A stretch of 64,000 bases of DNA, taken from the NCBI GenBank assembly GCA_038087875.1, contig CM075991.1, positions 6,138,001-6,202,000 on the forward strand. Direction: 5' to 3'. The notes beneath the pieces are model-generated. The model did no database searches and was not told the DNA's origin. It saw nothing but the letters and a program-made list of their open reading frames with translations. The stretch is from Malacoraja senta. Lineage: Eukaryota. Position 1 is the first letter of the stretch; each line of letters starts with the position of its first letter. Position numbers and translations under genes: made by a program. This document shows positions 3,301 through 64,000 of the stretch, piece after piece.

Positions 3301-4650
3301 ATGCCCCTGAAAACAAAGAAACGCCAAGGTGTAGGAACAATCACCTGGGTACCGCTGGTCAAATACAAAACAAACAGGCATCTGCCACCTTAGTTACCCG
3401 GGCAATTCAACAGTGGCGCAGCGGCAGAATTGATGGCTTAAAGCCCTGTCCCACGGTACGAGTTCATTCCAAGAGTTCTCCCGAGTTTGCCCTGATTCGA
3501 ACTCGGAGATTTACTATAATGGCCACTCGTCAGTACTCAGGGCTCTCGTGGACATTTTTCATCATGTTGAAAAATCTTCACGAGTCTTCCCGTGCTTACC
3601 TGCCGTTAGCGAGTCTTCCCGAGTACCTGCCGTTAGCGCTAAGAGGCGTCCCCGAGCTCCAACGCTACGTTCATTCTCCGTGCTTACCACGAGTTTGATT
3701 TTTGTTTAAACTCGGGAGAGCGTTTGGAATGAAATCGTACCGTGGGACAGGACCATAACAGCGTCAGAGACCTGGGTTCAATCCTGACTAAGGGGGCTAT
3801 CTGTACGAGGTTTGTACATTCTCCCTTTGACCCACCGAGTCCGCTTCTAAGGGCACACCGCACACTAATGCTATCCTTCACACTAGGGACAATTTACAAT
3901 TATACCAAGCCAATTAACCTACAAACCTGTACATCTTTGGAGTGTGGGAGTAAACTGGAGTGCCCAAAAAAATCTCACATGGTCACAAGCAGAACGTACA
4001 AACTCCGTACAGACAGCACCGGTTGTCAGGATCGTACCCACGTCTCTGGCGCTGAGGCAGCAACTCTACCGCTGTGCCACCCTAGTCGAATAGCTGTGGT
4101 CATTTTAGTGCCTCTGTCATTGATGCCCCGGTTTTACTGATGAATATCTTTTTAGTTGCACAACTCCTATGGCTGGTTTTGAACCTTGTCTTACTGTCCA
4201 CTGCACTGTTAGTGACTCGCACACCATGTTGCCACCTCTACACACAAAGGCGCGCACCCACACACAAAGACAGAAAGGCGCGCTTGCGTGCACACACACA
4301 CACAAAGAAACACCCACACACAAAGATGCGCACACACACAAAGACACACCCACACACACACAAAGATGCGCACACACACACAAAGTCACGCACACACACA
4401 CACACAAAGTCACGCACACACACATACAAAGACGCACACACACACACACAAAGTCACGCACACACACATACAAAGACGCACACACACACACACAAAGTCA
4501 CGCACACACACATACAAAGACGCACACACACACACACACAAAGACCAAGGCACGGTCGCGCACACACAAAGACACAAAAGCAGACACACACACACACACA
4601 AAGACTCAAAGGCATAAAAGCACATAATGGCGCACGCACACACACAAAGG

Positions 4651-19700: not shown

Positions 19701-22700
19701 ACGCTGGCTCCAAGCCCAGTGTGGTTTCCTTGGAGCCTGTTTAAGCCCCCACAGAAGGATCCCTTTTCAAAAGGAACATCAAGCGAGAAACCTTGAAAGG
19801 CCTCGGAACTCTTTGAAGGCTGGTGGCTGCAGCAAGACCTTGAGGAAAGGAAGGCTCCCCCAACAGGAAGGCAAGTAAACAAAGCCGGCAGTATTAAACA
19901 ATAAAGCCCTGTGGGAAGCCCGCTCTCCCACCTTGCCGTTCCCACTCCCACCTGTGTGACTCGACCATCAGCCGGCCATCGAAGCAGGCTGTCGCAGTGA
20001 GAAGAGATACACAGCAAGGAGGCTCCACAGTCCACACTCATAGACCATAGATCAGGCCCTTCGGCCCACTACATCTGTGCTGAATATGATGGCAAGATAT
20101 TCAAATTTATTTAGAGATGGATCATCGAAACCAGCCCTTCGGCCCACTATGTATGTGGCGAATATGACGCCAATATCAACTAGCTTGGAGATATCGAGGG
20201 AAACAGGCCCTTCGGCCCACCATGCCGTACACTAGTTCTATGTTGTCCCACTTGTGCATTCCACACAATTTGACAGAAGCCAAATAACCTACAAACCTGC
20301 ATGTTTTTGGAGGGTGGGAGGAAACCAGGGCACTCTGAGAAAACCCACGTGGTCACAAGGAAAATGTACAAACTCCGTGCAGACAGCACCCGTTGTCAGG
20401 ATCGAACCCGGGTCTCTGATTGCAACTCTACCGCTGTGCCACTGTGTTGGCCCCCACTAATCTCATCTGCCTCAATCTGTTGCATATCCATGCGACTATC
20501 GAAAAGCCTTTTAAATGGCACTATCTTTATGCTATATTTGACCCCACAAATGAGCAGGGCAGAGGGAGGATGCAAAAGAAAACTCCTATTGTTTGCAAAT
20601 TATGAACATTGAGGAACCCGCCCTCCATTTCCAACTACAGAGAACAATAGTGAACTTAGGGAACTTTGAGCAGATAAGATGTCCATGGGTTTTGCCCCAA
20701 ATCGGGAACACCACTCCTCTTTGCTTTGAGATCTGGATGGGTCTGCGTCTCTCTTTATTTCCCCGACGCTGCGTAAGTTCAACGTTTCAGCTGTGATTTA
20801 ATTTCCCCTTTTAGCGTTGCCCAGGTTACACGTTTACCAGACTGAGCCAGCGAGCAGGTTAATGATACGCTGCCAAGTAAACAGCGGCTGCATCTCTCCT
20901 CCGCAACTCTCTGCTGCTCAACTTTGCTCCCCTCGCTCAGCCTCCGCCGAGTCCTTGGTCAGCAAAGACATTCGGAAGGTGCAATCAACCTCACACCAAC
21001 GATGTGGCGGTCAAGCCGCAGCCTGAACTCTGGTCCTTCTCCTCATCGCTTCACCAGTTCTTGTGCTGCAAGATTGGACTTTGACTTATCAATGAGGTAG
21101 CAAACCAGGCCAGCGAACACCAACATCAGCCGAGGGGAACATTGCATTCTGTCTCACACTCACTCTTTGAGGCAGCACGGTGGCACGCCAGTAGTTCCTG
21201 CCTCACACAGCGTCAGATAACCAGGTTCGATCCCGCCAACAGGTACTGTCTGTGTGGAGTTTGTACGTTCTCCCTGCAACCTGCGTGGGTTTTCTCAGGT
21301 TCTCCGGTTCCCTCCCACGTTCCAAAGACGTGCAAGTTGGTAGGTTAATTAGCTTCTGTAAATTGCCCCCAGTGTGTAGGATGCGAAAGTGAGATAACAT
21401 GGAACTAGTGCATGGGTGATCGTTGGTCGGTATGGGACCTGTTGGGCCGAAGGGCCTGTTTCCACACTGTATCTCTAAACTAAACATCCTCCTCCACACC
21501 ATATTCCAGTTCCAGCCTATCTCTTCAAGTAACCCCGGCATTCCCTCTCACTCCATCCCTCCCCCACCCAAGTCGCACCAGCTTCTCGTTTTCGCCCAAC
21601 AAACAGCTACCAATGGCCTGTTTCCCTGAACATCGTTACCTTTTTGCATATCATTCATTCATTGTTCTTTATCTCTCTACATCATCGTCCCGTATCTCTC
21701 ATTTCCATTTCCTGTGACTTTCAGTCTGAAGAAGGGTCTCGACCCAAAACGTCACCCATTCCTTCTCTCCAGAGATGCTGCCTGTCCCGCTGAGTTAATC
21801 CAGCTTTTGTGTCTATCTTCAGTTTAAACCAGCATCTGCAGTTCCTTCCTACACATCTAGCCTATAGCTCAACTGGAGAGCATTTGAAGGCAATGATAAA
21901 GACACAAAAGCTGGAGTAACTGAGTGGGTCAGGCAGCATCTCTGGAGAAAAGTGGATGGGCGCCGTTTCGGGTCGGGACCTTTCTTCACCTGAAGCAGAA
22001 ATGTCACCTATCCATTTTCTCCAGAGATGCTGCCTGACCCGCTCAGTTACTCCAGCATTGTGTGTCTATCTTTAGTAAAAACCCAGCATCTGCGGTTCCT
22101 TTTAATTAGTCTTTGAAGGCAACCACATTACCCAAAACCCTCTTCATTTTGTGAAAGCAAGGAATTGCAGTTGCTGATTTACGTAAAAGAACACAAAGTG
22201 CTGGAGTCCACTCAGCAGACCAGGCAGCATCTTGGGAGAAGGTGGATAGGTGACGTGTCGGGTATTAACCAGTGTCTGCAGTTCTTTGTCTCTACACAGT
22301 CTCAGATCCCAGATTCAACTTGGAAACCTTTGTAATCCATTCAGGTGATGAGTGGACCGCTCGGTTGATGGGGTTAGCCCAGTAAACTCACTCCACAGAT
22401 GGAACCTCGTTTATTGTGCCTCAGAACCGATGCTCAACCGTGATCCAGCTCCCAGCTAACGGAGGGCGGTGGGTTTCCTCTCACTCACCTGTAGGCCCAG
22501 GAATATGCAGAGGTACCAGGGTGGAACATCCTCAATGGAGTAGATCATGTCCATCTCCCGGGGTTCCGGGCATCCCCTGCTGTTGGAGACATCAGTGAGG
22601 GAACCCTGCCAAAACAAAAAAGGATGAAATGTCAACCATCAAAACATAGGAGCAGAATTAGGCCATTCAGTCCATCAAGTCTACTCTCTCTTCAATCATG

Positions 22701-25700
22701 GCAGATCTATTTTCCGCTCTCGATCCTTTTCTCCTGCCTCTTACCCCCCCCCCCCCCCCCAACCTCGTAACCAGCACCAGAGACCAGAGTTCGATCCTGA
22801 CTAGAGGTGCTGTCTGTTCGGAGTTTCCACGTTCTCCCTGTGACCACGTGGGTTTTCTCCAGGTGTTTCGGTTTCCTCCAACATTCTGAAGATGTGCAGG
22901 TTTGGAGGTAAATTGTCCCTGGTGTGCAAGATAGAATGAGTGTAGAGGTGATCGCCGGTCGTAATGGACCTGGTGGGTCGAGGGGATTTTCCACCCCATA
23001 TCTCTAAACTAAACTAAATTCCTCCTCACCCAACTGCAGCAGGACACAATTATTTTTTATTTCTGCAAGTGTACATGAAAGTAATTGCACATCGTAATGG
23101 CGGCACAGAGTGTCTTGCTGGGCCAGTTCACAGGACAAGTAAGAATCCATCTCACCGAGCCAAATCACGCCAGCCACTTGTGTCTTAGGAGGATAGACAC
23201 AAAAAGCTGGAGTAACTCAGCAGGACATGCAGCATCTCTGGAGAGAAGGAATGGGTGACGTTTTGGGTAGAGACCCTTCTTCAGACTAGCTGGGGTCTTG
23301 GATTTCCCGAACACAGAGAATCAGATATATTGAGGGAAATAGATAGGCTGAATAGGCTCTAAAGCAAGGGTGGGGAACCTGCGGCCTTAAGGCCACATGC
23401 GACCTTCTAGGCCATTAAGTGCGGCCTTTTGAATGAATCCAAATTTTGTAGAACAAATCCTTTTATTTTTATTCGTCTTATATTATTTTTATTTTTATCT
23501 TAAAATAAACGTATTTAAAATACCAAAGAGTAAAAGATTCAACGAAATAATCCTCCCCGACTGACGGCCACAATTAAAAACATTATTAAGTCATGAGCGC
23601 TATTTTTACAAAATAACGTACATTTTGAAGTATATCTAATTGAAGTTTCTTGGATGCGGCCTTATTAGATTATAGCTAACATAATGCAGCATTCCAACAT
23701 GAAAAGGTTCCCCATCCCTGCTCTAGAGTGTGTGAATCAAGAACCAGAGGACATAGGTTTAAAGTGAGAGGGAAAAGATTTAACAGGAACCAGAGGGCAA
23801 CCATTTTCACTCAGAGGGTGGTGGATATACAGAAGGAGCTGCCAGAGGAGGTAATCAAGTACAATAACAACATTTAAAAAGGCACATAGACAGGAACATG
23901 GATAGGAAAGGTTTAGAGGGATATGGACAAATGCAGGCAATTGGGACAAGCATAGATGGGGCATCTTGGTCGGTATGGATGAGTTGGGCCTATTTTCGAG
24001 GTTGTACGACTCTAGGACTCTTTCCTAAATATAGGCGGCACATCTGGCTGTGCAATCCGACACAGAACCGACACGTCGAGGGAAGTCCAGATGTACCACA
24101 TCTTCTGCTCCGCTGTACAACAAAGGGAGGGCTGATGTGTGAGCAGCCATCCCATTCAGATGACCTTGCAAGTAGATCAGACGTCAAGCTATTGAAGGGC
24201 GAAACTGGTTCCTGGAGCCGACTCCCCTCCCCAATCTAAATTACATTTAGCTGAATGGGACCCTGTGTGGGAAAGAGCCCAGTGCAGATAAATGCTTTCC
24301 TTATCTTACCTTGTATAACTGCAATAGAAAGCATACTGACGGGTTGCATCACAGCTTGGTTTGGGAACAGCTCTGCCCAAGACCACAAGCAATTGTAGAG
24401 AGTTGGAGACAGAGCCCAGTCTAACCACACAGACCAGACTTCCCACCATTCACACCACCTACACTTCGAGCTCCTTGGAAAAGCAGCCAACATAATCAAC
24501 AACTTATCCCACCCTGGCCATTCCTTCTTCTCGCTGTTGCAGACCGGAAGAAGGTACAGAGGCTTAAAAATGCATAACCCCCCCCCCCCCCCCAGACTAA
24601 AGGGTGAAATGTCTCCCAGGGTGGAAATGTCGAGGACCAGAGGGAACAACTTTAAGACGAGAGAGCAAAGATTAAAGGGGGTGTGTGGGGCAAGTTTGTT
24701 TTTGAAAACACAGAGAGGGTGGGAGACGGGAATGCTCTGTCGGAGTCGTGACGAAGGAAGATAAGCGGCTTTTAGATAGGCACATGGACATGCAGGGAAG
24801 GGAGGGATATGGACAAGGTGCAGGCAGAGGAGACTGGTTTAACTTGGCATTATATCCGGCACGGACACAGTGGGCCGAAAGGCCTGTTCCTGTGCTGTGC
24901 TCTATGTTCTACATAGAGGTAAAAACTCTTTGATCTGGTGCACAGGATATCACATGTGCCAGACCACCAGACTATCAATGTTATTTTATCAATACTTAAT
25001 TATTTAACTATCCTTAACAAATGTCATAAGGTTGGTAAGTATAAAGGGGCGATCGAGGCCTGGTGGAGGGGTGACCTTAACTGGGGTACAAGTGAGAGCA
25101 CAAGACACAGTGGACATTACCTGGCAAGCTTGATGCTGAACCATCACGATTTCGAACGGCTGGATAATGAATAATCGGTTTTATTGCAGTTGGTTACTCC
25201 TACACTGATGCTGCGTTTCACTGGAGCGTTCACACACCATCCATTTGTCACAGTCTAATGTGAACTAAACTGAAGGCAGCAGCGTACAAAGTTGCAACAG
25301 TAAAACATGTGACGCAAGATAAATGTAACCCACAATGACCCTAAAGTAGCAACTAAGCCCAACAGCAAATACACGCCAGCCACAAACCAACACGCACACA
25401 CACTGACATTAATGCTTGATTCCAAAATTAATTTGTTTGCTCGGATTCACGTATACCAGCTGCAGGAATCGAACTCCAGATGTTTAATCCTGCCCTCGGG
25501 TCCAATAAGTTAACCCGTTTGCTGCCGTGCTCCTGCAGTTCATCGGAGGCCATCAGAGGGAGGGGGTGGGGGGTGGGGGGTGGGGGGTGAAGAGCTTGCA
25601 AACACTTCCAGGTTCAGCAGACTGGCCATTCACCCGACAATGCAAATCCTGGACGCAGTGAATCATTGCAGACGTTTCTAACTCAACAATGCAAAGGTTA

Positions 25701-28700
25701 TAGTTGCATAACTTATAATACCTTAAATTAAAACCACTGACAGGTCATGCTCAGCCTCTTCATCTGAAGTGGGGGCCGGCACAGAGGGTAGAGCTGCTGC
25801 CTCACGGCGCCCGGGGCCTAGGTTCGATCCCGACCTCGGGTGCTGTGTGGAGTTTGCACGTTCTCCCTATGCACGTGTGGGCTCCCACCACATCCCGAAG
25901 ACGTGCGGGTTTGTAGGGTTAATTGGCCTCTGTAAAATTACCACTAACTGGAACCACTAACGTGGAGGAGAAAGTGGGACAACAGAGAACTAGTGTGAAC
26001 CGGCGATCGATACTCGGCCTGGACCTGGTGGGCCAAAGGGCCTGTTTCCGAGCTGAATCTCTAAAACGAACATTTTAATGTCCTCTGTAAAATTGCTCCC
26101 AGTTTGTACGCAGTGGATAAGAAAGCGGCATAACATAGAACTAGTGTAAACGGGTAATCAATGGACTTGGTGGACCGAAGGGCTCGTTTCCATGCTGTAT
26201 CTCTAAACTAAACCTCCTGCTATTGACAATGGGCGTGAACACCTCAAGGATTAGTGGAACACTCCCAGAATGGTCGGCCACCATTTTAAAATGTTCTTGG
26301 CAGCCAAATGCGAGTGATACGGATCAAATGTTTGTCTTGCAAGTGGCAATGTTTGAAGTTATAGAGAACTGTTTCACTAACAAATTGTTCAACAACAAAA
26401 AATGCATGCCATTGAAATCTTTGTAAGCTGAAGACACGTCCCCCAAAAGCAAGAGCACATTGTTGCAGTAAATAGAGCATTCATTGAGCAAGGAATGCCC
26501 GTGTCAGCAAAAAGCAAGGGGAATGCACAAAGGACAGAAGATAAAACAATAAATAGCATTGGTTGGCATTTACACAATATCTTCAATGTCGTGAAATATC
26601 AAAGGCGCATGTAATGAGTCACAAAGGGAAAATTCCACAAAACGTGAAAGCAGAGCAAAGAAGCTGGGTTTTAAAGAACACCTTAAAAGCAAGAGCGAGA
26701 AGTAGGGAGATGTTGGAAACTAGGACTAAAGAGTCTATGACGGAAGCTGGCGGATTTGCAGATGTTCAAGAAGTCAGAGTAGTCAACTGGAGGCTTCCAC
26801 TCTGGAATCTGTAGGTGGTACAGTGAAGCTGGTACATCTACTGATAGCCAGTACGTCCATGGTATCTCAAGGTGGTAGAATGCAGGTGGTACCTCTACTG
26901 GTATGTCTAGGTAGTACAGTGTAGGTGGTACTTCTACTGGTATCTCTGGGTGGTATAGTTTAGGTGGCACATCTACTGGTATCTCTGGGTGGTATAGTTT
27001 AGGTGGTACATCTACTGGTATCTCTGGGTGGTATAGTTTAGGTGGCACATCAACTGGTATCTCTAGATGGTAAAGTGCAGGTGGTGCACCTTCTGGTAGG
27101 AGGTACATCTTCTGGTTTCTCTAGGTGATACCTGATGTCCATTGGCGTCTGTATGGAGTTTGCATGCTTTCTCTGTGACTTTGAGAGATTCATTTGGATG
27201 CTCTGGATTTCCCCCCCCCCCTCCCCATATCCCAAAGATGGGTGGGTAGGCAGGTAAATCGGCTGCTGTAAATTGCCCTCAGTGTAAACGCGAGTGTATG
27301 AATGGGGGAGGGGGAAGAGGAGAAGGCATTGAAAGGAAAGTGGGGAGACCAAAAGATGGGAATAACACAGCACTGGAACAAATAATTGACGATCAGCATG
27401 GACCCGGTGGGCCGAAGGGCCCATTGCCATGCTGTATGTCTCTTTATGTATGTATGTCATTGGGCACAAGCACCATGGGACCATGCCCCGGAAGCTGGAG
27501 AATGGCAGGTTCATGCATCAGGTTTGGAGGGATATGGACCAAGCGCAGGCAGGTGGGACTCGTGTAGCTGTGACATGTTGGCCGGTGTCGGCAAGTTGGG
27601 CCGTAGGGCCTATTGCCATGCTGTATATCTCTTTATGTATGTATGTCATTGGGCACAAGACTAGTGTAGCTGGGACATGTCGGCCGGTGTGGGCAAGTTG
27701 GGCCGAAGGCCTGTTTCCGTACTGTATCACTCAATGACTCCAGGTCTCCCAGTTGGACAAGGGGCCAGAGATGACATTTGCCCCATGTTCTACTGATGTG
27801 CTTCCTCACAGCTACCAGCAACTGATTGGGCCTCAGATACAAAACATCTCACTGTCGAAACAAGGAACTGCAGATGCTGGTGACAGAAAGTGCTGGAGAA
27901 ACTCGACTCGGGCCAGGCAGCATCTCTGGAGAACATGGGACAGGCGACTCTTTGGGTCGGGACCCTTCCTCAGACCGATTGTAGGAGGGGGAGGAAAGCT
28001 GGAAGAGAGGAGAGGTAAGGACAAGGCGTGGCAGGTAATAGGTGGACACAGGCGAGGGAGGGGGAGGTTTGAGAGGCAGATGGTTGGAACAAAGGCCAGA
28101 GATGAAAGCAGGTGTGAGACAGGTAAATTGAAGAGTTGCAAATTGTGAAGCCAGAGGAAGGAACGTCGGAGGAGGGGGAAGGGAGAAATAGGTGCAAGTC
28201 CAGGTGGGGCACAGGTGTGCCTTGCTGATACTGTTAAATCAGGCTGGAATGGCAGCGCGGGTCTGTGTGTATATCCAGAGACCCAGCAGCTACTGTGGTA
28301 ACGCTGCTTGTTATCTTGCCCATTGCCCGACCAACAGGTGAAATCAGGTGAAGGCACTGGAAGAGATTCCATAGTGCCCGTGAACACAGAGAGTTCCTTG
28401 ATGCAGTATCCAGCTGCGTCTGTACATAGCCCACCTTGAGCACGAGCAACAGATTGAGGCAGTCCGCCAAGAAACGTCTCGTCAACAAGGACAAAAGGTT
28501 CCAAGGGAAACAGGGACAATCCCAACGCTCACCATTGTCCCAGGAGAGAGAACATCAGAAGGGCTCGAACAAAGGATCTACAGAAGCTAAAGCATCACAA
28601 GTGTGGGTCACAGAAACCAACAACCAGCCGTAGAAACTCCGGGACACTGGAGCTATTGATGGCTTGGAAACAGGGAAGAGCTGTGGCGACACGGTGGCGC

Positions 28701-31700
28701 TGCGGCATGAGTCGCTGCCTTACAGCACCAGAGACCCAGGTTCGATCCTCACAACGGCAGCTGTCTGCACCAAGTTTGAATGTTTTCCGCGTGACCGCGT
28801 GGGTGCTCCGGTTCCCTCCCACACTCCAAAGATGTACAGGTTTGTAGGTTCATTGGCTTCTGCAAATTGTCTCTAGTGTGTAGCATAGTTCTAGTGTACA
28901 GGGTGATCGCTGGTCGGCTCAGACTCGGTGGGCCAAAGGGCCAGTTTCCACGTTGTACTTCCAAAGACTAAAGGAAAAGCCATGGCAGACAGCACTACAG
29001 CTTCTAGAGAGGCATCGTTCACAGCAGCGGATAGTACAATACATGGGACAGGGCAGTAGCAAAGGAGTTAGTCTTTTTTTTTTGAGAAAGGACTACACAT
29101 GAGGGGGAATCATTTGCTGAGATATGGGGAAAGAATAGGATAGTGCAGGGGTCGGGAACCTACGGCCCCCGGGCCGAATGAGGCCCGTAACCCAAAATCA
29201 TCCGGCCCGCAGTCGTATTTTTTTTTCTGTAATCATCCAGCCCGCAGACTTTCATCATCTCCGGTACCTCACGGGCCCGAGGCCGGGGCGCGCAGGCACG
29301 GTGACGCAGCAGTGGCGGTAGCAATGGCGGAACCGCCAAGCGCCGGCCTCTGGCTGTACCGCAGCCTGCGCAAAGCCGCCAGCACGGCCGCGCACCTTCT
29401 GTGTCTGGGCTTCACTGTCGGGATCGGGGTTGTCAATAGGCCGGGGCCGTGTGAGTGTGAGTATTTGAGCCACCGCCTTCAGGACCGAGCCAAGGCAATG
29501 GTCCGTAGGTACGCCATGTTCGTGAGGGCCCGTAACTAGGGGCCAGTGGTCCGTCCTCGAAGGGGCCGGGATCTATGTGAACACGTGAACACGTGATTTG
29601 ATGCCTGTCATCCGTGGGCGGGATGGGAGCGGGATCCGTGTGTACATGTGATAGATGTGGCCCGCCATCCGCTCACAGACATACTTCCTGGCCCCTATGC
29701 AGAACAAGGTTGCCGACCCCTGGGATAGTGGGATGAATTAGAAAAAGGCGCGAGACTATGCTGTGAATGAACTCCTGCCGAGCTTCACTCTATTATGGGC
29801 TGGAAGATAATGGGCAGCAATGCAGCAGAGCTGTCCACTCACAGCTCCAGTGATTCAGGTTCAAGCCCAGCCTCGGTGTACAGATTGCATGTTCTCCCAA
29901 CTTTCATGAGTTTCCCTCAGGTGTTCCAGTTCCCTGCCGCATCCCAAACATGTGCAGATTGCGTTAATTGATGGCGTGAACTGTCTGTTGTGAGCGGGAG
30001 AATCTGGGGGGAGTTAATGGGGAGTGTGTAAACCAGGCTGGGGTGGGATTGGTGTACATGGGTGATCGATGGGCAGCATGGGTCTGGTTGGGTAAAGAGT
30101 CTGTTTCCATGCCGTAAAACTACAGGCAAGACTTCCGAAGAAGGGTGCCGACCCGAAACGTCACCCATTCCTTCTCTCCAGAGATGCTGCCTGTCCCGCT
30201 GAGTTACTCCAGCTTTTTGTATCTTTTTATAGGCAAGTCTTGTACTTTTCCATATAATGCTTTTGGCTCGTTTTGTATTGGAATTTCATTCGGGGAACAT
30301 ACAAGTAGCCTGAACTGCTTCAATTCTAACACACAACTGGCAGGGTGGCACAGCGGTAGAGTTGCTGCCTTACAGCGCCAGAGACCCAGGTTCCATCCGG
30401 ACTACGGGTGCTGTCTGTGCGGAGTGTGCACGCTCTCCCCCGGGATCTGCAGGACGATTCTCCAGGAGCTCTGGTTTCCTCCCACATTCCACAGAGGTAC
30501 AGGTTTGGTAGGTTAATTGGCAACGGTAAAATTGTAAATTGTCCCAAGTGTAGGAAAGTGCTAGTGTGCAAGGACTATCTGAAGTTAGAGAAGTCAATGC
30601 TCATACCGCTGGGGTGTAAACTACCTAAGCGAAACATGAGGTGCTGTTCCTCCAAAGTGTAGTGTGCAGGAATTATGTTCATCTACACGCTATAATTAAA
30701 CTTTAAAATAAATCTGAACTCGGGGCATACCTGGAGCCGTGACCATGTGCTGGTCAGTGCGGACTCGGTGGGCCAAAGGGCCTGTTTCCACTTTGTATCT
30801 CTAAACTCAACTGAACAATCCAGTGGAATATTGCATAAGGGTGATACCAAAGCCATCACTACTCCACCTAGTGATCTTTGTGTACAATGCACAGAGGACC
30901 AAGAACAATTCCTCCAAGTATGCTCCCAGATCAGATTTCTATTAAAGTTTAATTGCGGCGCGGAGATGAACACAATCGAATTTCTAGGCCAAACGATCAT
31001 CTTACCGTCTCACATTCCTGCAACATTTCAGAGAAATAATGAGCTGGCTGCCAGGACTCACATCAGCACCCGAATAGATCACCGAAATTGGTGATCAATC
31101 AATATAACCAGACTCTGAAGAAGGNNNNNNNNNNNNNNNNNNNNNNNNNNNNNNNNNNNNNNNNNNNNNNNNNNNNNNNNNNNNNNNNNNNNNNNNNNNN
31201 NNNNNNNNNNNNNNNNNNNNNNNNNNNNNNNNNNNNNNNNNNNNNNNNNNNNNNNNNNNNNNNNNNNNNNNNNNNNNNNNNNNNNNNNNNNNNNNNNNNN
31301 NNNNNNNNNNNNNNNNNNNNNNNNGGTCTCGACCCAAAACGTAACCCATCCCTTCTCTCCAGAGATGCTGCCTGTCCCGTTGAGTTACTCCAGCTTTTTG
31401 TGTCCATCTTCGGTTCAAGTTCAAGTTCACATTTATTGTCACATACACCAATTGGCAGTGAAATTTGACTTGCCGTACAGCCATACAAATAAAAAGAACA
31501 CAATACCAGATAGAGTTTAACATAAACATCCCCCACAGCAGAATCAACGTTTCCCAATGTGATTGAAGGCGATAAAGTTCAGTCATCTTCCTCTTTTGTT
31601 CACCCGTGGTCAGGGCCTTTGAACCCTCTCGCCGGGGTGATCGGAACTCCGTCGTCGTAACGGATCGGAACACACTCGTGGCTTGGAGTTTCCGAACCGG

Positions 31701-34700
31701 CCGCTTCTTACCGGAGACCGCGACTTCCGAAGTCCACAGGCCGAGCTGGGCGGAGCTCCAACACTGGCGACCCCCGGCAAAAGATCCCAGGCCTCCGCGA
31801 TGTTAAAGTCAGTGTCGCGCCGGCGCTGGAAGCTCCGCAAACCACAGCTCCACGGTGTTAAAGTCAGCAGGCCCAACACTCCGGAGCTCCAACACAGGCG
31901 ATCCCCGGCAAGGCATCGTCCCACTCCTCGATGCGCCGCTGCTGAAGCTCTGGGCCGGTCTCCGGTAGGAAAGGCCGCGCCAATCCAGTTAGTAGGCCGC
32001 GAGGGGGAGGCAAAGATGCGACACAGAGAAAAGACGCATCTCCGTCCAGGTAAGTGACTGAAAAACGGTTTCCCCCATCCCCCCCCCCCCCCCACATAAG
32101 ACATATTAAGAACATTTAAAACATACAATTAGACACACTAAAAATAACAAAAAGGGCAAAAGGACTAACAGCAGCTGGCGAGGCAGCCATTGCTGGCGCC
32201 ACCCGGTGTTCGGTTAAATCTTCGGTTCAAATTTTCCCAAATGTATCATCTATTTGTGATAAATGTCAATCCCAAGAAGCTACTATAGCGCACTCATTCG
32301 TTTTCTGTACAAAAATTCAAAAATTTTGGAATGAATTTTTGAAATCTTTACAAAGTTATTTAAAACAAGACTGATACCCAAAGCAGAATGGATTATCTTC
32401 GGAATAACGGAAGATGGTCCAGAACTAAATGTGTTTCAAAAGAAACTAATGGACTATGGGTTAATAATTGGAAAAAGCTAATTCTAAAATTTTGGAAGAA
32501 GGCTCCAATACAACTATAAATATGTGGATTTCAAATATGTTTGAAACATTACACCTAGAAGAGATAAGACTCCTCCTAGCAGGTAAACCAGTTCACTTCC
32601 ACCTGACGTGGTCTGCATTTATAGAATTATTACAAACATAGGGTGCAAAAGTACTTTAAAAAAAAAAAAAAAAATTGAGGTCAGGTAAGGGGGGATGATA
32701 GTTGAAGAGTTGTATGTCCCATTTACGTAATGCTCATAAAAATATTTGTTTCTCTCTTTTTCCTCTTTCTCTCTCTCTCTCTCTTTCTTCCTAGGGTCTA
32801 TTTCTTAACTCTTTTTCTTTCGTTTTTAATTTTGCTCTTATAGGGTCTTCGTCCTTTTTTGTTGTCACATTTCCTACACTTTCACTTTTTCCTTCCACTT
32901 TCTTCTTTCTTTCATCTTTTCCTTTTCTAGTGTAAAAAATAAATGGAGTCCATTAATTGTAAGAAGATATAAATGACGAGTATATGTATGTGGTTGTAAT
33001 GTAATGTACTTCTAATAAATAAAAATTAAAAAAAAATCTTCGGTTAAACCTGCATCTGCAGTTCCTTCCTACACAATATAACTAGAGTAACAACTGTCCC
33101 ATCTCTGCCGGTCATAAGGTAAGCTCAATACCCACGTCAAGGTATCTTGACCAATCTTAAATCTAACAACCGCTAGGCGACTTGGACATGATTATGGAGG
33201 CCAGTGTGTTAGCACCGTGCTCAAACAACTCTTACTTTCTCTGGAGTGTTGTTCTCGTTCCCGTACACCGCCATCAGCTCGGTGACCTCCGTGTCCTGCT
33301 CGCTGCTGGCTGGAACCGCACCGTTCATCACCACCTAAGAGGACCAACAAGAGACAGGGACTCAGAAGAGGGTAGAAGCAAGGCGACTGACGGAGCTCCT
33401 AAAGCGGCAGGAACGGTTTAGGCTTATTGGTGTCACGCGTACCGAGACGGAGTGGTTTTGCCATGCTTTCCAATCAGATCAGATAACACTGTACATAAAT
33501 ACAAGTCAAGTCAAATCCAAGCACGATAGGAAGAGCAAAGGGGAAAATACGGAGGGCAGGATATAGCACTCGGCATTGTAGCGCATCAGCTTCATAGAGT
33601 TTAACAGCAAAGAAAAAAAGAGTTAAATATCCGACAATGTGCAAGGCTTGCAATACAAAGCACACATGAAGCTGTAGGGAATATGTGGCTCTAGGGCCCT
33701 AGAAAGAACAATAGTGGCCAGTTCCCCTCAGCAACTTGAGCGCCCTAAAAGACTACAAAAAGTGGTAAACACTGCCCAGTCCATGATCGGCTCCAACCTC
33801 CCTTCCATCGAGGGGATCTATCGCAGTCGCTGCCTCAAAAAGGCTGGCAGTATCATCAAGGACCCCACACCATCCTGGCCACACACTCATCTCCCTGCTA
33901 CCTTTGGGTAGAAGGTACAGGAGCCTGAAGACTGCAATGACCAGGTTCAGGAATAGCTACTTCCCCACAGCCATCAGGCTATTGAACTTGGCTCGGACAA
34001 AACTCTGAACATTAATAGCCCATTATCTGTTATTTGTACTTTATCGGTTTATTTATTCATGTGTGTATATATTTATATAATGGTATATGGACACACCGAT
34101 CTGTTTTGTAGTCAATGCCTACTATGTTCTGTTGTGCTGAAGCAAAGCAAGAATTTCATTGTCCTATCAGGGACACATGACAATAAACTCACTTGAACTT
34201 GAACTTGAGTTCACCACTTTGTCATGAGTTTCACATTCAGATGACTCAATTGAAATCCTTTGGCAACGAGTACCAAACCAATATCGCAACTGTCAACATG
34301 CTCTACACACTGAATCATTAGGCGTGTGTCTGATAGCAGCAAACATTCATGACATAATAAGGGTCTTAAAACACGTGACTGCAAATTCTGTATCAGTCTG
34401 TAGTAACTCCCGTTACCTGAAGGAACAAAGATTGAGCAAAACGTTTAACTTTGGGATTTGATAACAGGCCAACCTCTTGCCTGAACTTGGCATGTTATGG
34501 TGCCCACCTTTCGCTTCTGGTCACTCGTGGAGGAAAGGGGAGCAGATCTACAACTTGCCACCAGGTAATAGAAACCCGGCAACTGCAGATGCTGCTTTAC
34601 AAAAGAAGAACACAGTGCCGTGTTGCATCCGACACCATCGCAGGAGAATATGGATAGGCGATTTTTCAAGTCAAGATGCTTCTTCAGACTGACTGCATTG

Positions 34701-37700
34701 GGGGTTGGGTTGGTTTGATTGGCAAAAGGTTGGAAGAAAGATTAAACACAGAAGGTGTAAAACAAGAGGATTGAAGAGCTGCAAATTGTGAAGTCAGAGG
34801 AAGGAATGTGGGGAGAGGGGTGGAGAAATAGGTGCGAGTCCAGGCGGGGCACAGGGGAGGTGATGAGTGGGAAGAAGTTATGAGAGGTTATCTAAAATTG
34901 CAGAATTCAATGTTGATACCGTTGGGTTGTTAGGTCCCCAAGCTAGCAAGCCCTGTTCTGAAGGAGTATTAAACCCGAGGTTATTGTCACGGTCAAATGG
35001 GCTAGTTAAAGGTCTGGTGCTAGATCGTAACTCACAGGATCCTGCACTGGTCAGCACTTAACCAACCGTAATATCAAAATTGTTCCAGCCAGTTCTTGTC
35101 CAATAGTGAAGTCATAATCGCCCATCTTCGACAAAATTCCATTACAGAATGTAGGGGATGTGATTTGATCCATAATGTTTGGGACAAAGACCCATCATTT
35201 ATTTATTTGCCTCTGTACTCCACAATTTGATATTTGTTATAGAAAAAAAAAAATCACATGTGGTTGTCAGATTAAAATAAAGGCAATTTTTATACATTTT
35301 GGTTTCACCATTTTGGTTTCACCATGTAGAAATTACAGCAGTGTGTATACATAGTCCCCCCCCCCCCCCCATTTCAGGGCACCATAATGTTTGGGACCCA
35401 GCAATGTCATGTAAATAAAAGTAGTCATGTTTAGTATTTTGTTGCATATCCTTTGCATGCAATGACTGCTTGAAGTCTGCGATTCATGGACTTCACCAGT
35501 TGCTGAATGTCTTCTCTGGTGATGCTCTGCATGGTCTGTATTGCAGCCATCTTTACCTTATGCTTGTTTTGGGGGCTAGTCCCCTTCAGTTTTCTCTTCA
35601 GCATATAAAAGGCATGCTCAATTGGGTTCAGATCGGGTGATTGACTTGGCCACTCAAGAATTGACCATTTTTTAGCTTTGAAAAACTCCTTTGTTACTTT
35701 AGCGGTATGTTTGGGATCATTGTCTTGCTGTAAACGCTGGCCAATGAGTTTTGAGGCATTTGTTTGAACTTGAGCAGAACTTTGTTTGAACTTGAACTTG
35801 TGGCTATACACTTCAGAATTAATTATGCTACTACCATTAGTAGATGTATCATCAATGAAGATAAGTGAGCCCGTTCCTTCAGCAGCCATACATGCCCAGC
35901 CCATAACCAACTCCGACCACCGTGTTTCACAGATGAGGTGGTATAGAAACATAGAAACATAGAAAATAGGTGGAGTAGGCCATTCGGCCCTTCGAGCCTG
36001 CACCGCCATTCAATATGATCATGGCTGATCATCCAACTCAGTATCCCGTACCTGCCTTCTCTCCATATCCCCTGATCCCCTTAGCCACAAGGGCCACATC
36101 TAACTCCCTCTTAAATATAGCCAATGAACTGGCCTCAACTACCCTCTGTGGCAGAGAGTTCCAGAGATTCACCACTCTCTGTGTGAAAAAGTTTTTCCTC
36201 ATCTCGGTCTTAAAGGATTTCCCCCTTATCCTTAAGCTGTGACCCCTTGTCCTGGACTTCCCCAACATCGGGAACAATCTTCCTGCATCTAGCCTGTCCA
36301 ACCCCATAAGAATTTTGTATGTTTCTATAAGATCCCCTCTCAATCTCCTAAATTCTAGCGAGTATAAGCCAAGTCTATCCAGTCTTTCTTCATATGAAAG
36401 TCCTGACATCCCAGGAATCAGTCTGGTGAACCTTCTCTGCACTCCCTCTATGGCTATAATGTCCTTCCTCAAATTTGGAGACCAAAACTGTACGCAATAC
36501 TCCAGGTGTGGTCTCACCAAGACCCTGTACAACTGCAGTAGAACCTCCCTGCTCCTATACTCAAATCCTTTTGCTATGAAGGCCAACATACCATTCGCTT
36601 TCTTCACTGCCTGCTGCACCTGCATGCCTACTTTCAATGACTGGTGTACCATGACACCCAGGTCTCGCTGCATCTCCCCATTTCCTAATCGGCCACCATT
36701 TAGATAATAGTCTGCCTTCCCGTTTTTGCCACCAAACTGGATAACCTCACATTTATCCACATTATACTGCATCTGCCAAACATTTGCCCACTCACCCAGC
36801 CTATCCAAGTCACCTTGCAGTCTCCTAGCATCCTCCTCACAGCTAACATTGCCCCCCAGCTTAGTGTCATCCGCAAACTTGGAGATGTTGCTTTCAATTC
36901 CCTCATCCAGTTCATTAATAAAAATTGTAAATAGCTGGGGTCCCAGCACTGAGCCTTGTGGTACCCCACTAGTCACTGCCTGCCATTGTGAAAAGGACCC
37001 GTTTACTCCTACTCTTTGCTTCCTGTTTTCCAGCCAGTTCTCTATCCACATCAATACTGAACCCCCAATACCGTGTGATTTAAGGTTGTATCCTAATCTC
37101 TTATGTGGTACCTTGTCGAAAGCCTTCTGAAAGTCCAGATACAACACATCCACTGGATCTCCCCTATCCACTCTACTAGTTACATCCTCGAAAAATTCTA
37201 TAAGATTCGTCAGACACGATTTACCTTTCGTAAATCCATGCTGACTTTGTCCAATGATTTCACCACTTTCCAAATGTGCTGCTATCCCATCTTTAATAAC
37301 TGACTCTAGCAGTTTCCCCACTACCGATGTTAGACTAACTGGTCTGTAATTCCCCGTTTTCTCTCTCCCTCCCTTCTTAAAAAGTGGGGTTACGTTTGCT
37401 ACCCTCCAATCCTCAGGAACTACTCCAGAATCTAAAGTTTTGAAAAATTATCACTAATGCATCCACTATTTCTGGAGCTACTTCCTTAAGTACTCTGGGA
37501 TGCAGCCTATCTGGCCCTGGTGATTTATCGGCCTTTAATCCATTCAATTTACCCAACACCACTTCCCCCGACTAACCTGGATTTCACTCAGTTCCTCCAT
37601 CTCCTTTGACCCGCGGCCCCCTGCTATTTCCGGCAGATTATTTATGTCTTCCTTAGTGAAGACGGAACCAAAGTAGTTATTCAATTGGTCCGCCATATCC

Positions 37701-40700
37701 TTGTTCCCCATGATCAATTCACCTGTTTCTGACTGCAAGGGACCTACATTTGTTTTAACTAATCTCTTTCTCTTCACATATCTATAAAAACTTTTGCAGT
37801 CAGTTTTTATGTTCCCTGCCAGTTTCCTTTCATAATCTATTTTCCCTTTCCTAATTAAGCCCTTTGTCCTCCTCTGCTGGTCTCTGAATTTCTCCCAGTC
37901 CTCTGGTATGCTGCTTTTTCTGGCTAATTTGTACGCATCATCTTTTGCTTTGATACTATCCCTGATTTCCCTTGTTATCCACGGATGCACTACCTTCCCT
38001 GATTTATTCTTTTGCCAAACTGGGATGACCAATTTTTGTAGTTCATCCATGCAGTCTTTAAATGCCTTCCATTGCATATCCACCGTCAACCCTTTTAGAA
38101 CTAATTGCCAGTGAATCTTGGCCAATTCACGTCTCATACCCTCAAAGTTACCTTTCTTTAAGTTCAGAACCGTTGTTTCTGAATTAACAATGTCACTCTC
38201 CATCCTAATGAAGAACTCAACCATATTATGGTCACTCTTGCCCAAGGGGGCACGCACAACAAGACTGCTAACTAACCCTTCCTCATTACTCAATACCCAG
38301 TCTAGAATAGCCTGCTCTCTCGTTGGTTCCTCTACATGTTGGTTTAGATAACTATCTCGCATACATTCCAAGAAATCCTCTTCCTCAGCACCCCTGCCAA
38401 TTTGATTCACCCAATCTATATGTAGATTGAAGTCATCCATTATAACTGTTTTGCCTTTGTTGCACGCATTTCTAATTTCCTGTTTGATGCCATCCCCAAC
38501 TTCACTACTACTGCTAGGTGGCCTGTACACAACACCCACCAGCGTTTTCTGCCCCTTAGTGTTTCGCAGCTCTACCCATACCGATTCCACATCCTCCAAG
38601 CTAATGTCCTTCCTTTCCACTGCCTTAATCTCCTCTCTAACCAGCAACGCTACCCCACCTCCTTTTCCTTTCTCTCTATCCCTCCTGAATATTGAATATC
38701 CCTGGATGTTCAGCTCCCAGCCTTGGTCACCCTGGAGCCATGTCTCCGTGATCCCAACTATATCATAATCATTAATTGCTATCTGCACGTTCAACTCATC
38801 CACCTTATTACGAATGCTCCTTGCATTGAGACACAAAGCCTTCTGGCTTGTTTTTACAACGCTCTTACCCCTTATACAATTATGTTGAAAAGTGGCCCTT
38901 TTTGATTTTTGCCCTGGATTTGTCTGCCTGCCACTTTTACTTTTCACCTTGCTACCTATTGCTTCCGCCCGCATTTTACACCCCTCTGTTTCTCTGCTCA
39001 CCCATTTAAGAACCCCACCACCTCTTATTCTCTGTTTATTATTGTTTTCTTCTTTCCCCCCTACATGTTGGGTCTGAGTGCTTTCCTTCTCTGCCTCCTG
39101 CCTCACACACTGTCTAATAGCATTCTCTATTTGAGTCCCTCCCCCCAACCATTCTAGTTTAAAGTCTCCCCTTTGGATCTTGGCCAGTTCCTTATCTCCT
39201 CCATACTTTGCTCTTGCCATCACTCTGATATAAGTTAATCTTCATCTAATCTGTCCACAAGACCTTTTTCCAGAACTGCAATTGCTCTTATACGTACTTC
39301 TTGGCAAACTGTAACCTGGCCATCCTATTTCTGCGGCTAACCAGTGGTTTGCATCTTGCAGTGTCGCCTCTGTATTTCTGTTCATGAAGTCTTCTGTGGA
39401 CAGTGGTCATTGACAAATCCACACCTGACTCCTGAAGACCTTTTCTAATCTGTCGGACATATAAGATTGTTAAGGGCTTGGACACGCTAGAGGCAGGAAA
39501 CATGTTCCCGATGTTGGGGGAGTCCAGAACCAGGGGCCACAGTTTAAGAATAAGGAGTAAGCCATTTAGAACGGAGACAAGGAAACACTTTTTCTCACAG
39601 AGAGTGGTGAGTCTGCGGAATTCTCTGCCTCAGAGGGAGCTGGAGGCAGGTTCTCTGGATGCTTTCAAGAGAGAGCTAGATAGGGCTCCTAAAAATAGCA
39701 GAGTCAGGGAATGTGGGGAGAAGGCAGGAACGGGGTACTGATTGGGGATGATCAAGATTTAAGATATACCTTTAATAATCCTTTGCAGGAAATTACAATG
39801 CCACGACAGCTTCAAGACATACATAACACCACAAATAGCTTCCATACTTAACAAGTTAAAATACAAGTTAAAATACAAGTTAAAATACAATTAATTTAAA
39901 AAAAGTGCAGTTATTTATGCGCATTGTATAACCTTATCGCAGCTGGTAAACAGGACTTCCTATGTCTCTCCGTTTTGCACATTGGTGCAATCAGTCTCTG
40001 ACTGAAGCTGATCAGCCATGATCACATTGAATGGCAGTGCTGGCACGAAGGGCCGAATGGCCTACTCCTGCACCTATTGTCTATTGTCTATTGACAGGTG
40101 TTTGGGGATTTTTCTTTATTATAGAGATAATTATTCTGTCATCTTCTGTGGAGGTCTTCCTTGGCCTGCCAGTCCATTTGCAATTAGTAAGCTCACCAGT
40201 GCTCTCTTTCTTCTTAATGGTGTTCCAAACAGTTGATTTTGGTAAGCCTAAGGTTTGGCTGATGTCTCTAACAGTTTTATTCTTGTTTCTCAGTCTCATA
40301 ATGGCTTCTTTGACTTTCATTGGCACAACTTTGGTCCTCATGTTGATAAACAGCAATAAAAGTTTCCAAAGGTGACTGGAGGAAAGACTAGGTGCTGAGA
40401 ACTCTCTTATAACAGCATTAAGGAAGCATTTAAACACACCTGAGCAATTACAAACACCTGTGAAGCATGTGTCCCAAACATTATTGCACCCTGAAATGGG
40501 GGGGACTATGTACAAACACAGCTGCAATTTCTACATGGTGAAACCAAAATGTATAAAAATACCATTTAATAAAATCTGACAATGTGCACTTTAATCACAT
40601 GTGATTTTTTCTATTACAAATCTCAAATTGTGGAGTATAGAGGCAAATAAATAAATGATGCGTCTTTCTCCCAAACATTATGGAGGGCACTGTACCAATG

Positions 40701-52700: not shown

Positions 52701-54289
52701 GGCAGCGCAGCGTAGGTTCACGAAGTTAATCCCCGGGATGGTGGGACTGTCATATAAGGAAAGATTGGAAAGATTGGGCTTGTATTCACTGGAATTTAGA
52801 AGGATGAGAGGATATCTTGTAGAAACGTATACAATTATAAAAGGACTGGACAAGCTAGATGCAGGAAAAATGTTCCCGTCGTTGGGGGAGTCCAGAACCA
52901 GGGGCCACAGTCTAAGAATAAAGGGGAGGCCATTTAAAACTGAGATGAGAAAAAACGTTTTCACCCAGAGAGTTGCGAATTTGTGGAATTCCCTGCCACA
53001 GAAGGTAGTAGAGGCCAATTCACTGGATGAATTTAAAAGTGTTAGATAGAGCTCTAGGGGCTGGCGAAATCAAGGGATATGGGGAGAAGGTAGGCATGGG
53101 TTACTGATTGTGGATGATTAGCCATGATCACAATGAAGGGCCAAATGGCCTCCTTCTGCACCTACTTTCTATGTTTCTATGTAAGGCTGTCAAAGGTTAT
53201 GGGGAGAAGGCAGGAGAATGGGGTTGAGGGGGGGTGCAGATCAGCCATGATTGAATGGTGGAGTAGACTTGATGGGCTGAATGGCCTAACTCTACTGTGT
53301 CTTATGATCTTATTACCAGATACTATCAATCTAAAGGAGCCATCAGAATAAAAAGGTGGTGCAAAGAGAATTTTCTTCTGACGGGGGAAGTTAAGAGTTG
53401 AAATATGCTGCTTCTTGGAACACACTATCAAAAGCATTCCACAGGATCATTCTTAAAAGATGCACTTCTATTGGAGTCCTTACATCCCTTTCAGACATAG
53501 AGTGCTTTTGTAAAGCAGTCAGTGTTACATACAAAAGTTGGCAGACAGTGAAACTCAGCAAGCTGGCACAAACTACACCATAATAGTGACAAGGCAATCT
53601 GCTTTTTTCTTCTGTAATGTTTATCAAGGGATACTTATTAACAGGTATCACGGTATAACCCTTCTATTCCTCACAATATTGCCACAGAAAATGTTATGTC
53701 CATCTTTGGCATAAAATGTCATGACAGGATTTGCACTGGAGTGTCAGAGGATGATTTTTCTGCTCGTTGTCTGGAGCGGGTCTCGAACCCACCACCTTCT
53801 GACTGCTAACAACCCACCTTCAGCAAACATCCAGAGATGGTGTCTGACCCGCAGAGTTACTCCAGCATTGCATCTATCTTGCCAAAGACAATTGGGTTTG
53901 CACTTGTGTAGCTGGCTAATGGGGAAGGGCTGCAGTGTGGAGGATAGATCATATAATTCTTTCAAAAGACCATATTGGGGGAGTTCAGAACCAGGGGTCC
54001 CACAGTTTAAGATCTGTGGAATTCTCTGCCACAGAAGGCAGTGGAGGCCAATTCACTGGATGTTTTCAAGTAAGAGTTAGATATAGCTCTTAGGGCTAAC
54101 GGAATCAAGGGACATGGGGAGAAAACAGGAACGGGGTACTGATTTTAGATGATCAGCCATGATCATATTGAATGGCAGTGTTGGCTCGAAGGGTCAAAAG
54201 GCCTACTCCTGCACCTATTTTCTATGTTTCTATGATACGCTGAATCGATCCTGTCATTCTTTTTAGGGGATTGAGTGTCCTACTGTTGG

Positions 54290-54324
<35 letters not shown>

Positions 54325-63666: not shown

Positions 63667-63701
<35 letters not shown>

Positions 63702-64000
63702 CACTCACACATAGAAACACAGAGGTCCCAAACATAGGATTGAATGCTTTCTCCACTGGAACTCATGCAGGATCTAAACACTCTTTTTCGGCCGCCACAA
63801 ATGCTACCCAACTCCACCGAGTTCCTCCAGCAGCTCGTATTTTGTTCCCTCTGGGACTAATCTCCGACATCTCTGCGCAACTTCTACCTAGCGTCTACTG
63901 CATGTCAGAATTTAATCATTCCCACCATTGGCAGCCATTCAATCATTCATCAGCCAAGCCTGGAATTCAGGGCAGCACTGTCTCGCAGCGCTAGAGATCC
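62370..64000 (+). repeat. Direct duplicate of 52993-54623 (offset 9,377 bp), running off the window end
   Basis: Identical ORF sets (53124 vs 62501, 53398 vs 62775, 53721 vs 63098, 54363 vs 63740) and identical (CT)n length. Confidence 0.95.

Follow-up and report, generated by a model that had tools for sequence, protein, structure and literature searches.

Capture of host genes by hAT transposons is known in plants, with Pack-hATs found in maize (PMC8903248, in the portions available), and in vertebrates it is described, for hAT-class elements, only at few copies. The main survey of animals, as far as its available portions go, reports 370 Pack-TIRs in 100 genomes, 208 of them hAT and four of them multicopy (Tan et al. 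2021, PMC8277862), and treats those of vertebrates as almost all single-copy by-products of gap filling. The multicopy case that it illustrates, Pack-hAT-N8_XT of Xenopus tropicalis, has three copies with 5'UTR cargo, and the elephant shark, the sole chondrichthyan found in its supplement, has 0 Pack-TIRs there. The survey pipeline required annotated TE flanks and a unique best match, and would probably miss a family like the one described here. Its FoSTeST model of capture predicts template-switch scars, a parent TE spatially near the donor, and a founder locus that lacks the Pack element.

The window analysed here, a 64,000-nucleotide stretch of Malacoraja senta DNA, contains such an element in an intron of SLC23A2. 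I consider it very probable that the element belongs to a high-copy Pack-hAT family into which the 5' end of CYB561D2 was copied, which was then amplified and decayed neutrally, and in which capture is recurrent. Like the animal Pack-TIRs in the available part of the survey, it has hAT ends round a host fragment, a TE-free parental copy, distinct TSDs, GC-rich 5' cargo, and short microhomology; unlike them, the skate family reaches ~600-1,100 copies with a coding first exon and splice donor, and has made two captures. Among the gene-capturing bat Helitrons, HelibatN3 shows the same cargo anatomy at about a thousand copies (Thomas et al. 2014, PMC4224331, available portions); these Helitrons are rolling-circle elements with another capture chemistry and without TIRs or an 8-bp TSD, whereas the skate element is a cut-and-paste hAT with both.

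Plant Pack-MULEs and Pack-TYPE elements, as the available text describes them, are likewise non-autonomous TIR elements with GC-rich gene 5' fragments and are often multicopy (PMC8903248, PMC8277862), except that plant elements carry hundreds of cargos, mostly at low copy, whereas the skate family has two identified cargos, one of them at very high copy. The analogy with Pack-MULEs drawn in an earlier note on this DNA is therefore apt for how the element works and not for its class: the long TIRs and 9-11-bp TSD of Mutator ends are absent, and a 16-bp TIR, an 8-bp TSD and a hAT partner are found in their place. The combination of no TIR, no TSD and a 3' hairpin that marks Helitrons is also absent. 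No multi-gene chimera inside one hAT was seen among the skate elements examined. The same note's description of such capture as rarely documented in vertebrates needs narrowing, since 370 animal Pack-TIRs are published (PMC8277862) and it is high copy number that is rare. Among the papers listed in searches of largely open-access literature there was no description of the skate family or of a high-copy vertebrate Pack-hAT; Repbase or Dfam may hold an uncommented family consensus.

The element at the SLC23A2 locus and its donor gene

The element spans 29146-29722 (577 bp), its TIR arms are complementary at 15/16 bases, and both the sequence and a repeat scan bear out the length, the 16-bp TIRs and the perfect 8-bp TSD that had been reported (Table 1). 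The exon begins with the ATG at 29324 and counts 42 codons including that ATG (to 29449) and 1 nt, with GTGAGT at 29451; the exon and splice donor of the earlier reading thus stand, and its count of an ATG plus 42 codons was one codon too many. The first 3 bp of the upstream donor piece are microhomology common to TE and donor, and that piece is followed by a ~95-bp internal deletion relative to a long form of the Pack element.

Table 1. Features of the element and its host intron (positions in the window)
Feature	Position	Strand	Basis or remark
Left 8-bp TSD, GGATAGTG, central TA	29138..29145	.	sequence, repeat scan
Left TIR, 16 bp, 1 change relative to the family TIR	29146..29161	+	repeat scan
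hAT left arm, subterminal motif twice; matches left ends of transposase-bearing parents	29146..29257	+	comparison with parents
First 12 bp of captured donor DNA (from donor -207)	29258..29269	+	donor alignment
Captured CpG-rich upstream/5'UTR of CYB561D2, donor -101 to -1	29267..29323	+	donor alignment, CpG content
Captured CYB561D2 first coding exon, 42 codons + 1 nt	29324..29450	+	translation, donor alignment
Splice donor and ~155 bp of CYB561D2 intron 1, to donor +282	29451..29605	+	donor alignment
Junction scar: short TE-like piece, then second donor-like piece	29606..29649	+	presumed template switches
hAT right arm, 73 bp, including right TIR 29707-29722	29650..29722	+	repeat scan, parent match
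Right 8-bp TSD, GGATAGTG	29723..29730	.	sequence, repeat scan
SLC23A2 intron between coding exons 2 (33334-33236) and 3 (22602-22489), bounds approximate	22603..33235	-	cargo antisense to host

One exon of the host gene shows 97% identity to SLC23A2 of Leucoraja, and the present copy is a passive antisense insertion in intron 2 of that gene. With SLC23A2 as host and the cargo antisense, the arrival of a b561 gene fragment in an ascorbate transporter gene looks coincidental, as had been supposed.

The donor was traced with the PF03188 profile, which placed a D2-like last exon on contig C4 and D1-like exons on contig C5. The best matches of the C4 exon were all named CYB561D2 (top 89%, to stingray), in agreement with the donor originally proposed, and 6.6 kb upstream of it lies the donor exon-1 stretch (C4:64767810-64767427), which aligns to positions 122-467 of the family consensus (84% with gaps). 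The native gene is made up of three coding exons in an open frame, with GT/AG sites; its exon 1 is 124 nt (41 codons + 1), one codon shorter than that of the element family, and a 221-aa protein of spliced length (P0259) opens with the same exon-1 peptide. The D1-like paralog on C5 was rejected as donor at a peptide identity of only 55% and with no DNA match. CYB561D2 forms a single, TIR-free locus on C4 in the skate assembly (1.94 Gb), with no TIR match in the 40 kb scanned around the native exon, and the possibility that the window itself is the native locus falls away.

The element peptide shows 76% identity with the stingray CYB561D2 N-terminus (P0003) and 88% with the product of the native skate exon. 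The expectation that a protein search would return CYB561D2 was borne out in part: a blind database search for which the 42-aa peptide was the only query gave no match (5 candidates, none scored), and a second protein database search gave 3 matches, one of them named CYB561D2. The other two (P0243, P0244) were taken as chance, with 43-44% identity in 6-8 stretches, P0244 being a tandem-repeat protein, and a MauE identity for the peptide was discarded since the Pfam match lay below threshold.

Both the parent locus and the capture breakpoints could be found, as had been anticipated. The piece taken runs from -207 to +282 around the ATG (~490 bp) and comprises the CpG-rich 5' region, coding exon 1, the splice donor and ~155 bp of intron. 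Long-form copies (L087, L059) hold this whole stretch and the common form lacks ~95 bp of it, keeping its first 12 bases, which makes the long form the probable founder. Around the donor ATG (-400..+200) GC content is 61-65% and CpG o/e 0.56-1.09, and this CpG content suggests that the captured upstream region is a promoter.

Transposase-bearing parents and size of the family

hAT elements are defined by an 8-bp TSD, TIRs of 5-27 bp and a length < 4 kb, with nnnTAnnn as the Buster-type target site (PMC3517528, available portions). In all, 148 loci from five kinds of query gave 85 distinct two-TIR elements, whose TSDs match at 8/8 positions in 44, 7/8 in 18, 6/8 in 15 and fewer in 8, that is, at >=6/8 in 77/85. 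Position 4 is T in 156/170 flanks and position 5 is A in 157/170, and nnnTAnnn also marks the TSDs at loose element ends of two relatives. One right-arm locus led to a 1733-bp parent: its ends are those of the cargo family, its TSD is perfect and its transposase is broken. The interior of this parent matched ~30 loci (40 of 48 candidates scored); both ends are also present on longer copies, of 2288 and 2447 bp, and the parents thus measure 1.7-2.4 kb. The TE share of the family consensus is 1-~112 and 511-583.

All inspected parents are decayed and both translated copies are broken, so that the autonomous hAT sought with the same TIRs exists as transposase-bearing elements, with no intact transposase among the inspected copies of the hAT family. 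A C-terminal piece of the parent scored 0.95-0.97 in the Atlas to hAT-dimerisation/FAM200A/ZBED5 clusters (hAT dimerisation family on 17-52% of members), the best at 0.97 with 211 shared features, and 23/30 matches lay in PF05699-bearing clusters. Pfam gave no direct PF05699 match on parent pieces, and the Spin-doc zinc finger PF18658 matched at E=9e-5, under the Pfam cut-off. I take FAM200A/ZBED5 and the Spin-doc finger to be of Buster origin and to hint at a placement of the transposase in the Buster clade. In its left arm the cargo family combines traits of two parent subfamilies, and none of the parents inspected matched both. An approach through PF05699 and PF14291 covered 30 of 150 and 30 of 92 matches, and none of these 60 loci matched the arms.

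With same-ended partners that carry relic hAT transposase, the family is, on the sequence of its ends and target sites, best classed as a non-autonomous Buster-type hAT. Buster MITEs such as Drosophila Mar likewise have the 8-bp nnnTAnnn TSD, short TIRs starting CAGGGG and a related relic transposase (PMC3517528, available portions). Ordinary MITEs are internal deletions of their parent, whereas the interior here is host-gene DNA: 346-490 bp of CYB561D2 lie between parent-matching arms, within the 100-5000 bp of non-TE interior by which Pack-TIRs are recognised, the parental copy is unambiguous and TE-free, retrocopying does not fit (intron kept, exon 2 absent), and the distinct TSDs are those of a multicopy Pack-TIR. 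Presumably the ends also resemble those of mammalian Charlie/Cheshire-type MITEs.

The whole element as genome query gave 2408 first-look candidates, and the 40 scored included near-full-length matches at 79-91% identity, so the element is not a chance arrangement. CYB561D2 cargo is present in 79/85 two-TIR elements, at distinct sites, and further deletion variants of the Pack element were also transposed. Exact 23-mers were matched genome-wide 225 times for the cargo exon and 332 times for the right arm, with 0 matches for reversed controls. On contig C1, 12 of 65 cargo 23-mer matches pair with one of 85 right-arm matches, which gives ~1,800 right ends (1,100-3,350). Thirty right-arm loci divided into 10 with near-full cargo, 9 with shortened cargo and 11 without CYB561D2 sequence. 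The recapture estimate is ~600 full-cargo copies and ~1,140 with any cargo (range ~500-2,000), as extrapolated from chromosome C1 in an assembly that holds some duplicated loci (L106/L107, L031/L032, L231/L233); three other estimates of full-cargo copies were 500-590, and the 1168 candidates of a cargo query agree with the recapture figures. A left-arm search found cargo-derived copies in 29/29 non-self loci, and was left out of cargo-free counts because family-specific letters bias that query. Genome-wide amplification of the cargo, raised earlier as a possibility, is upheld at hundreds to ~1,100 estimated copies.

A second cargo and the fate of the copies

One further locus (L222, C1:77.717 Mb) has the same hAT ends and a 7/8 TSD around a different GC-rich interior, which as genome query gave 577 candidates. 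Among these, L257 (C1:311.501 Mb) matches the interior without TE ends and has an intact ATG-exon-GT; L222 aligns over 460 bp to this TIR-free exon with its GT donor. An in-frame PF03567 exon lies 6.7 kb downstream (E=1.9e-62), and L257 is on this gene structure assigned to a two-exon carbohydrate sulfotransferase (Sulfotransfer_2) gene, which I take to be CHST14-like. Attempts to name it gave Atlas scores only < 0.8, to ion channels, and no PDB match. L222 holds about -180..+281 of the sulfotransferase gene, of which 36 bp are intron; ahead of this stretch stands a short segment from the vicinity of the ATG, which reads as another switch scar. The left breakpoint of L222 in the TE is within ~5 bases of that of the CYB561D2 capture. 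The same hAT has thus captured a second CpG-rich gene 5' end, and capture recurs in the hAT family. As an intact Pack element the second cargo has one copy, L222 itself (1/30 right-arm loci). Among 13 other sampled second-cargo matches the left TIR was found in 8 and the right TIR in 0, and three matches examined lie inside a different ~1.45-kb TIR element, from which it appears that the truncated second cargo spread mainly as a passenger of a second TIR transposon.

A CYB561D2 cargo tree of 57 rows is star-like, with 2/54 inner branches well supported and the donor within the polytomy. Outside CpG, divergence of the copies from the consensus is ~3.5% for exon and intron alike (median 5.1% over whole elements), and the native sequence differs from the family consensus at 2/97 exon and 13/152 intron sites. 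The captured exon evolves neutrally across the pooled copies: pN/pS was 0.94 in 42 copies not chosen by exon and 0.96 in 67 copies, after 16/58 and 18/85 elements with < 80 exon bases or < 75% identity had been dropped. An unfiltered pN/pS of 1.11 (subset 1.37) was discarded because that set included misaligned cargo-free loci. Change was equal at the three codon positions and frameshifts occurred in 14/67 copies, and with a pooled-copy pN/pS of ~1 the family does not behave as a functional new gene of the Ssk-FB4 type.

Thousands of records among the DNA contigs of two related organisms contain the family. A contig of organism B extends from the element interior through the right TSD into unique flank (68 bases inside the element; 22 differences in 456); it bridges the right TIR/TSD junction and means that the insertion predates the split from organism B. 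The empty site that had been hoped for in relatives was not found, the sole relative bridging the right junction having the insertion; the DNA run of a second relative overlaps the element by 29 bases, under the 31-base minimum, and was not counted. Upstream cargo, a copy number of hundreds to a thousand, a second captured gene and an exon without selection were all points absent from the earlier note.

An explanation compatible with the preferred one is that the CpG-rich promoter, ATG and splice donor aided amplification, or that copies act as host promoters or first exons. In its favour, 19/30 sampled right ends carry cargo, the GT donor is intact in 57/67 copies, each of the two cargos identified is a gene 5' end rich in GC and CpG, and bat Helitrons with 5' ends are more numerous than those with other gene parts (PMC4224331, available portions). 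I nevertheless regard it as unlikely, given the equal change at codon positions with pN/pS near 1, CpG sites that have changed in ~12-17% of cases and decayed ~3x faster than other sites, as in methylated DNA, the antisense position of the present copy in SLC23A2, and the lack of a chimeric protein among 3 matches of a representative protein search. In two runs presumed to be RNA of relatives, pieces of the family occur in 239 and 110 contigs, with no legible splice joint at the donor; the readable part of one contig stops 11 bp before the splice donor, the contig itself extending further.

Routes of capture

At the left junction the switch point has three bases in common between TE and donor. 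Across the right junction, donor sequence continues to +282 and gives way to a short TE-like stretch, then to donor-like sequence again and finally to the TE arm, with switches at 3-4 shared bases that were read by eye and are at such lengths weak singly. A simple tandem duplication was rejected here, as its two units end differently, the first as the donor does and the second as the parent does, and I infer repeated template switching during synthesis, as in FoSTeST.

The sequence of events would then have been as follows. In an ancestral skate, the transposase interior of a Buster-type hAT would have been replaced by ~490 bp of the CYB561D2 5' end, most likely by DNA repair or replication synthesis that switched template between TE and gene at 3-4-bp microhomologies; since the donor is intact, its DNA was copied and not excised. 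The product retained both ends and, as the TSDs and shared ends suggest, was moved in trans by the family's transposase. The variant lacking ~95 bp became the main amplifier. The burst of amplification was short and is over, given the star-like tree, copies ~3.5-5% from the consensus outside CpG, and the broken state of all inspected parents, and the exon has been decaying neutrally after it.

End-bypass or composite transposition, in which hAT ends once flanked the CYB561D2 5' end and moved the intervening DNA as a unit, is improbable. In its favour, the donor has a decayed, transposase-bearing relative at a distance of 133 kb (post-hoc chance ~0.004 for ~30 loci) and a weak 72% left-arm match 22 kb upstream; neither breakpoint, however, has a TIR or arm remnant, the donor is intact, and the donor-TE-donor-TE scar is not expected from simple flanking excision. 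The right end of the relative is that of a sister subfamily and differs from that of the cargo family, so its nearness is only a hint, and template switching accounts for it equally well.

Capture at the RNA level, by reverse transcription of a partial or unspliced CYB561D2 transcript into a MITE, is highly improbable. The cargo would be solely 5' transcribed region if the start site lay upstream of -207, but it includes ~155 bp of intron after the donor site, lacks exon 2, poly(A) and an internal TSD, and the second cargo also keeps intron; retrocopies are normally spliced and 3'-anchored. The intron in the cargo instead places capture at the DNA level, as had been argued from the window alone. 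The reverse direction, a native CYB561D2 exon 1 derived from the transposon, may be dismissed: just 2 of the 97 exon sites compared separate the native exon from the family consensus, yet sharks, birds, amphibians and mammals all conserve the exon-1 peptide, which already refutes it, and the transposase-bearing parents lack the exon.

The skate family shows that vertebrate cut-and-paste elements can amplify host exons at Helitron scale, and it suggests that similar families go unnoticed within the consensuses of repeat libraries. Since both captures took a CpG-rich gene start and broke into the left arm at almost one position, the capture mechanism and the bias toward 5' ends become directly testable. 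A bolder view, which I hold to be doubtful, is that skates harbour the vertebrate counterpart of Pack-MULEs: a hAT capture hot spot ~95 bp into the left arm would repeatedly copy CpG-island gene starts (CYB561D2, the CHST-family gene, perhaps a third repeat interior), and the cargos would outcompete empty MITEs and pass to other transposons, leaving more than a thousand portable promoter-ATG-splice-donor cassettes, some of which would now start chimeric transcripts.

A practical consequence is that the first exon of a genuine gene is turned into 'repeat'. In two skates the RefSeq models of CYB561D2 are without exon 1, which repeat masking could explain.

A second captured gene

The hAT that carries CYB561D2 has a second Pack element in the skate assembly (G000), and the cargo of this one derives from a Sulfotransfer_2 gene, presumably CHST14-like by name (see table; L-numbers are loci extracted from that assembly). 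Both cargos, CYB561D2 and sulfotransferase, are 460-490 bp long and end ~282 bases past the donor ATG; this common end point and length is probably a coincidence. A distinct TIR element of ~1.45 kb contains the left portion of the sulfotransferase-bearing Pack-hAT, and this portion appears to have been amplified by it. TTAGGG-like repeats lie inside this TIR element.

Coordinates of the elements, donors and window features
Feature	Location	Strand	Remarks
Second Pack element, same hAT	L222:877-1534		Cargo: from a Sulfotransfer_2 gene, the 5' region with exon 1 and the beginning of the intron
Sulfotransfer_2 donor of L222 cargo	L257:530-991 and L271:5837-6655
TIR element, ~1.45 kb, distinct from the hAT	L272:944-2359, L273:938-2414, L274
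Transposase-bearing relative	G000:C4:64628700-64634109 (L252, L253)		Decayed and interrupted; 133 kb from CYB561D2 donor
Long LINE ORFs, presumably CR1/L2-like	window 36041-39241	-	565 and 469 aa; in the SLC23A2 intron preceding the one with the CYB561D2 element
Transposase pieces flanking LINE ORFs, presumably Tc1-like	window 35434-36009 and 40084-40530	-

The native CYB561D2 gene, its models and a paralog

Immediately 5' of the native CYB561D2 ATG lies a ~24-bp stretch (G000:C4:64767735-64767712, locus L061) which the element family lacks, and which includes an out-of-frame upstream ATG. Exon 1 is missing from the RefSeq CYB561D2 models of Leucoraja and Amblyraja (proteins P0248 and P0256; 171 and 163 aa, respectively), and this could be due to repeat masking of the captured exon; among the species listed, six further batoids, including one skate, have models of 221-222 aa. 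The CYB561D1-like gene occurs twice in the assembly, 54 kb apart (L031 and L032, C5:39.90 and 39.95 Mb) and at 98.6% identity, and the pair is either a recent tandem duplicate or an assembly duplication.

Sister and derived subfamilies

A sister MITE (L201, L202, L213, L217, L224, L226, L230) shares its ends with the CYB561D2 hAT family and retains a small remnant of the 3' end of the transposase, while its GC-rich ~37-bp tandem interior is not found in the parent; it may be a third capture. A short-cargo subfamily retaining only exon positions +8 to +76 (L103, L146, L150, L151, L164, L204, L207, L208, L227, L229) carries a small palindromic repeat as an insertion, continued to transpose, and is abundant in two relatives too. 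In another subfamily (L053, L062, L064, L073, L077, L079), a minisatellite has grown from 31 bp of the captured intron, and at L072 the right end occurs in a tandem run.

Identical ORF translations in the window

The ORF translations at window positions 53715-54614 and 63092-63991, ~9.4 kb apart, are identical, which points to a segment duplicated in or near SLC23A2.
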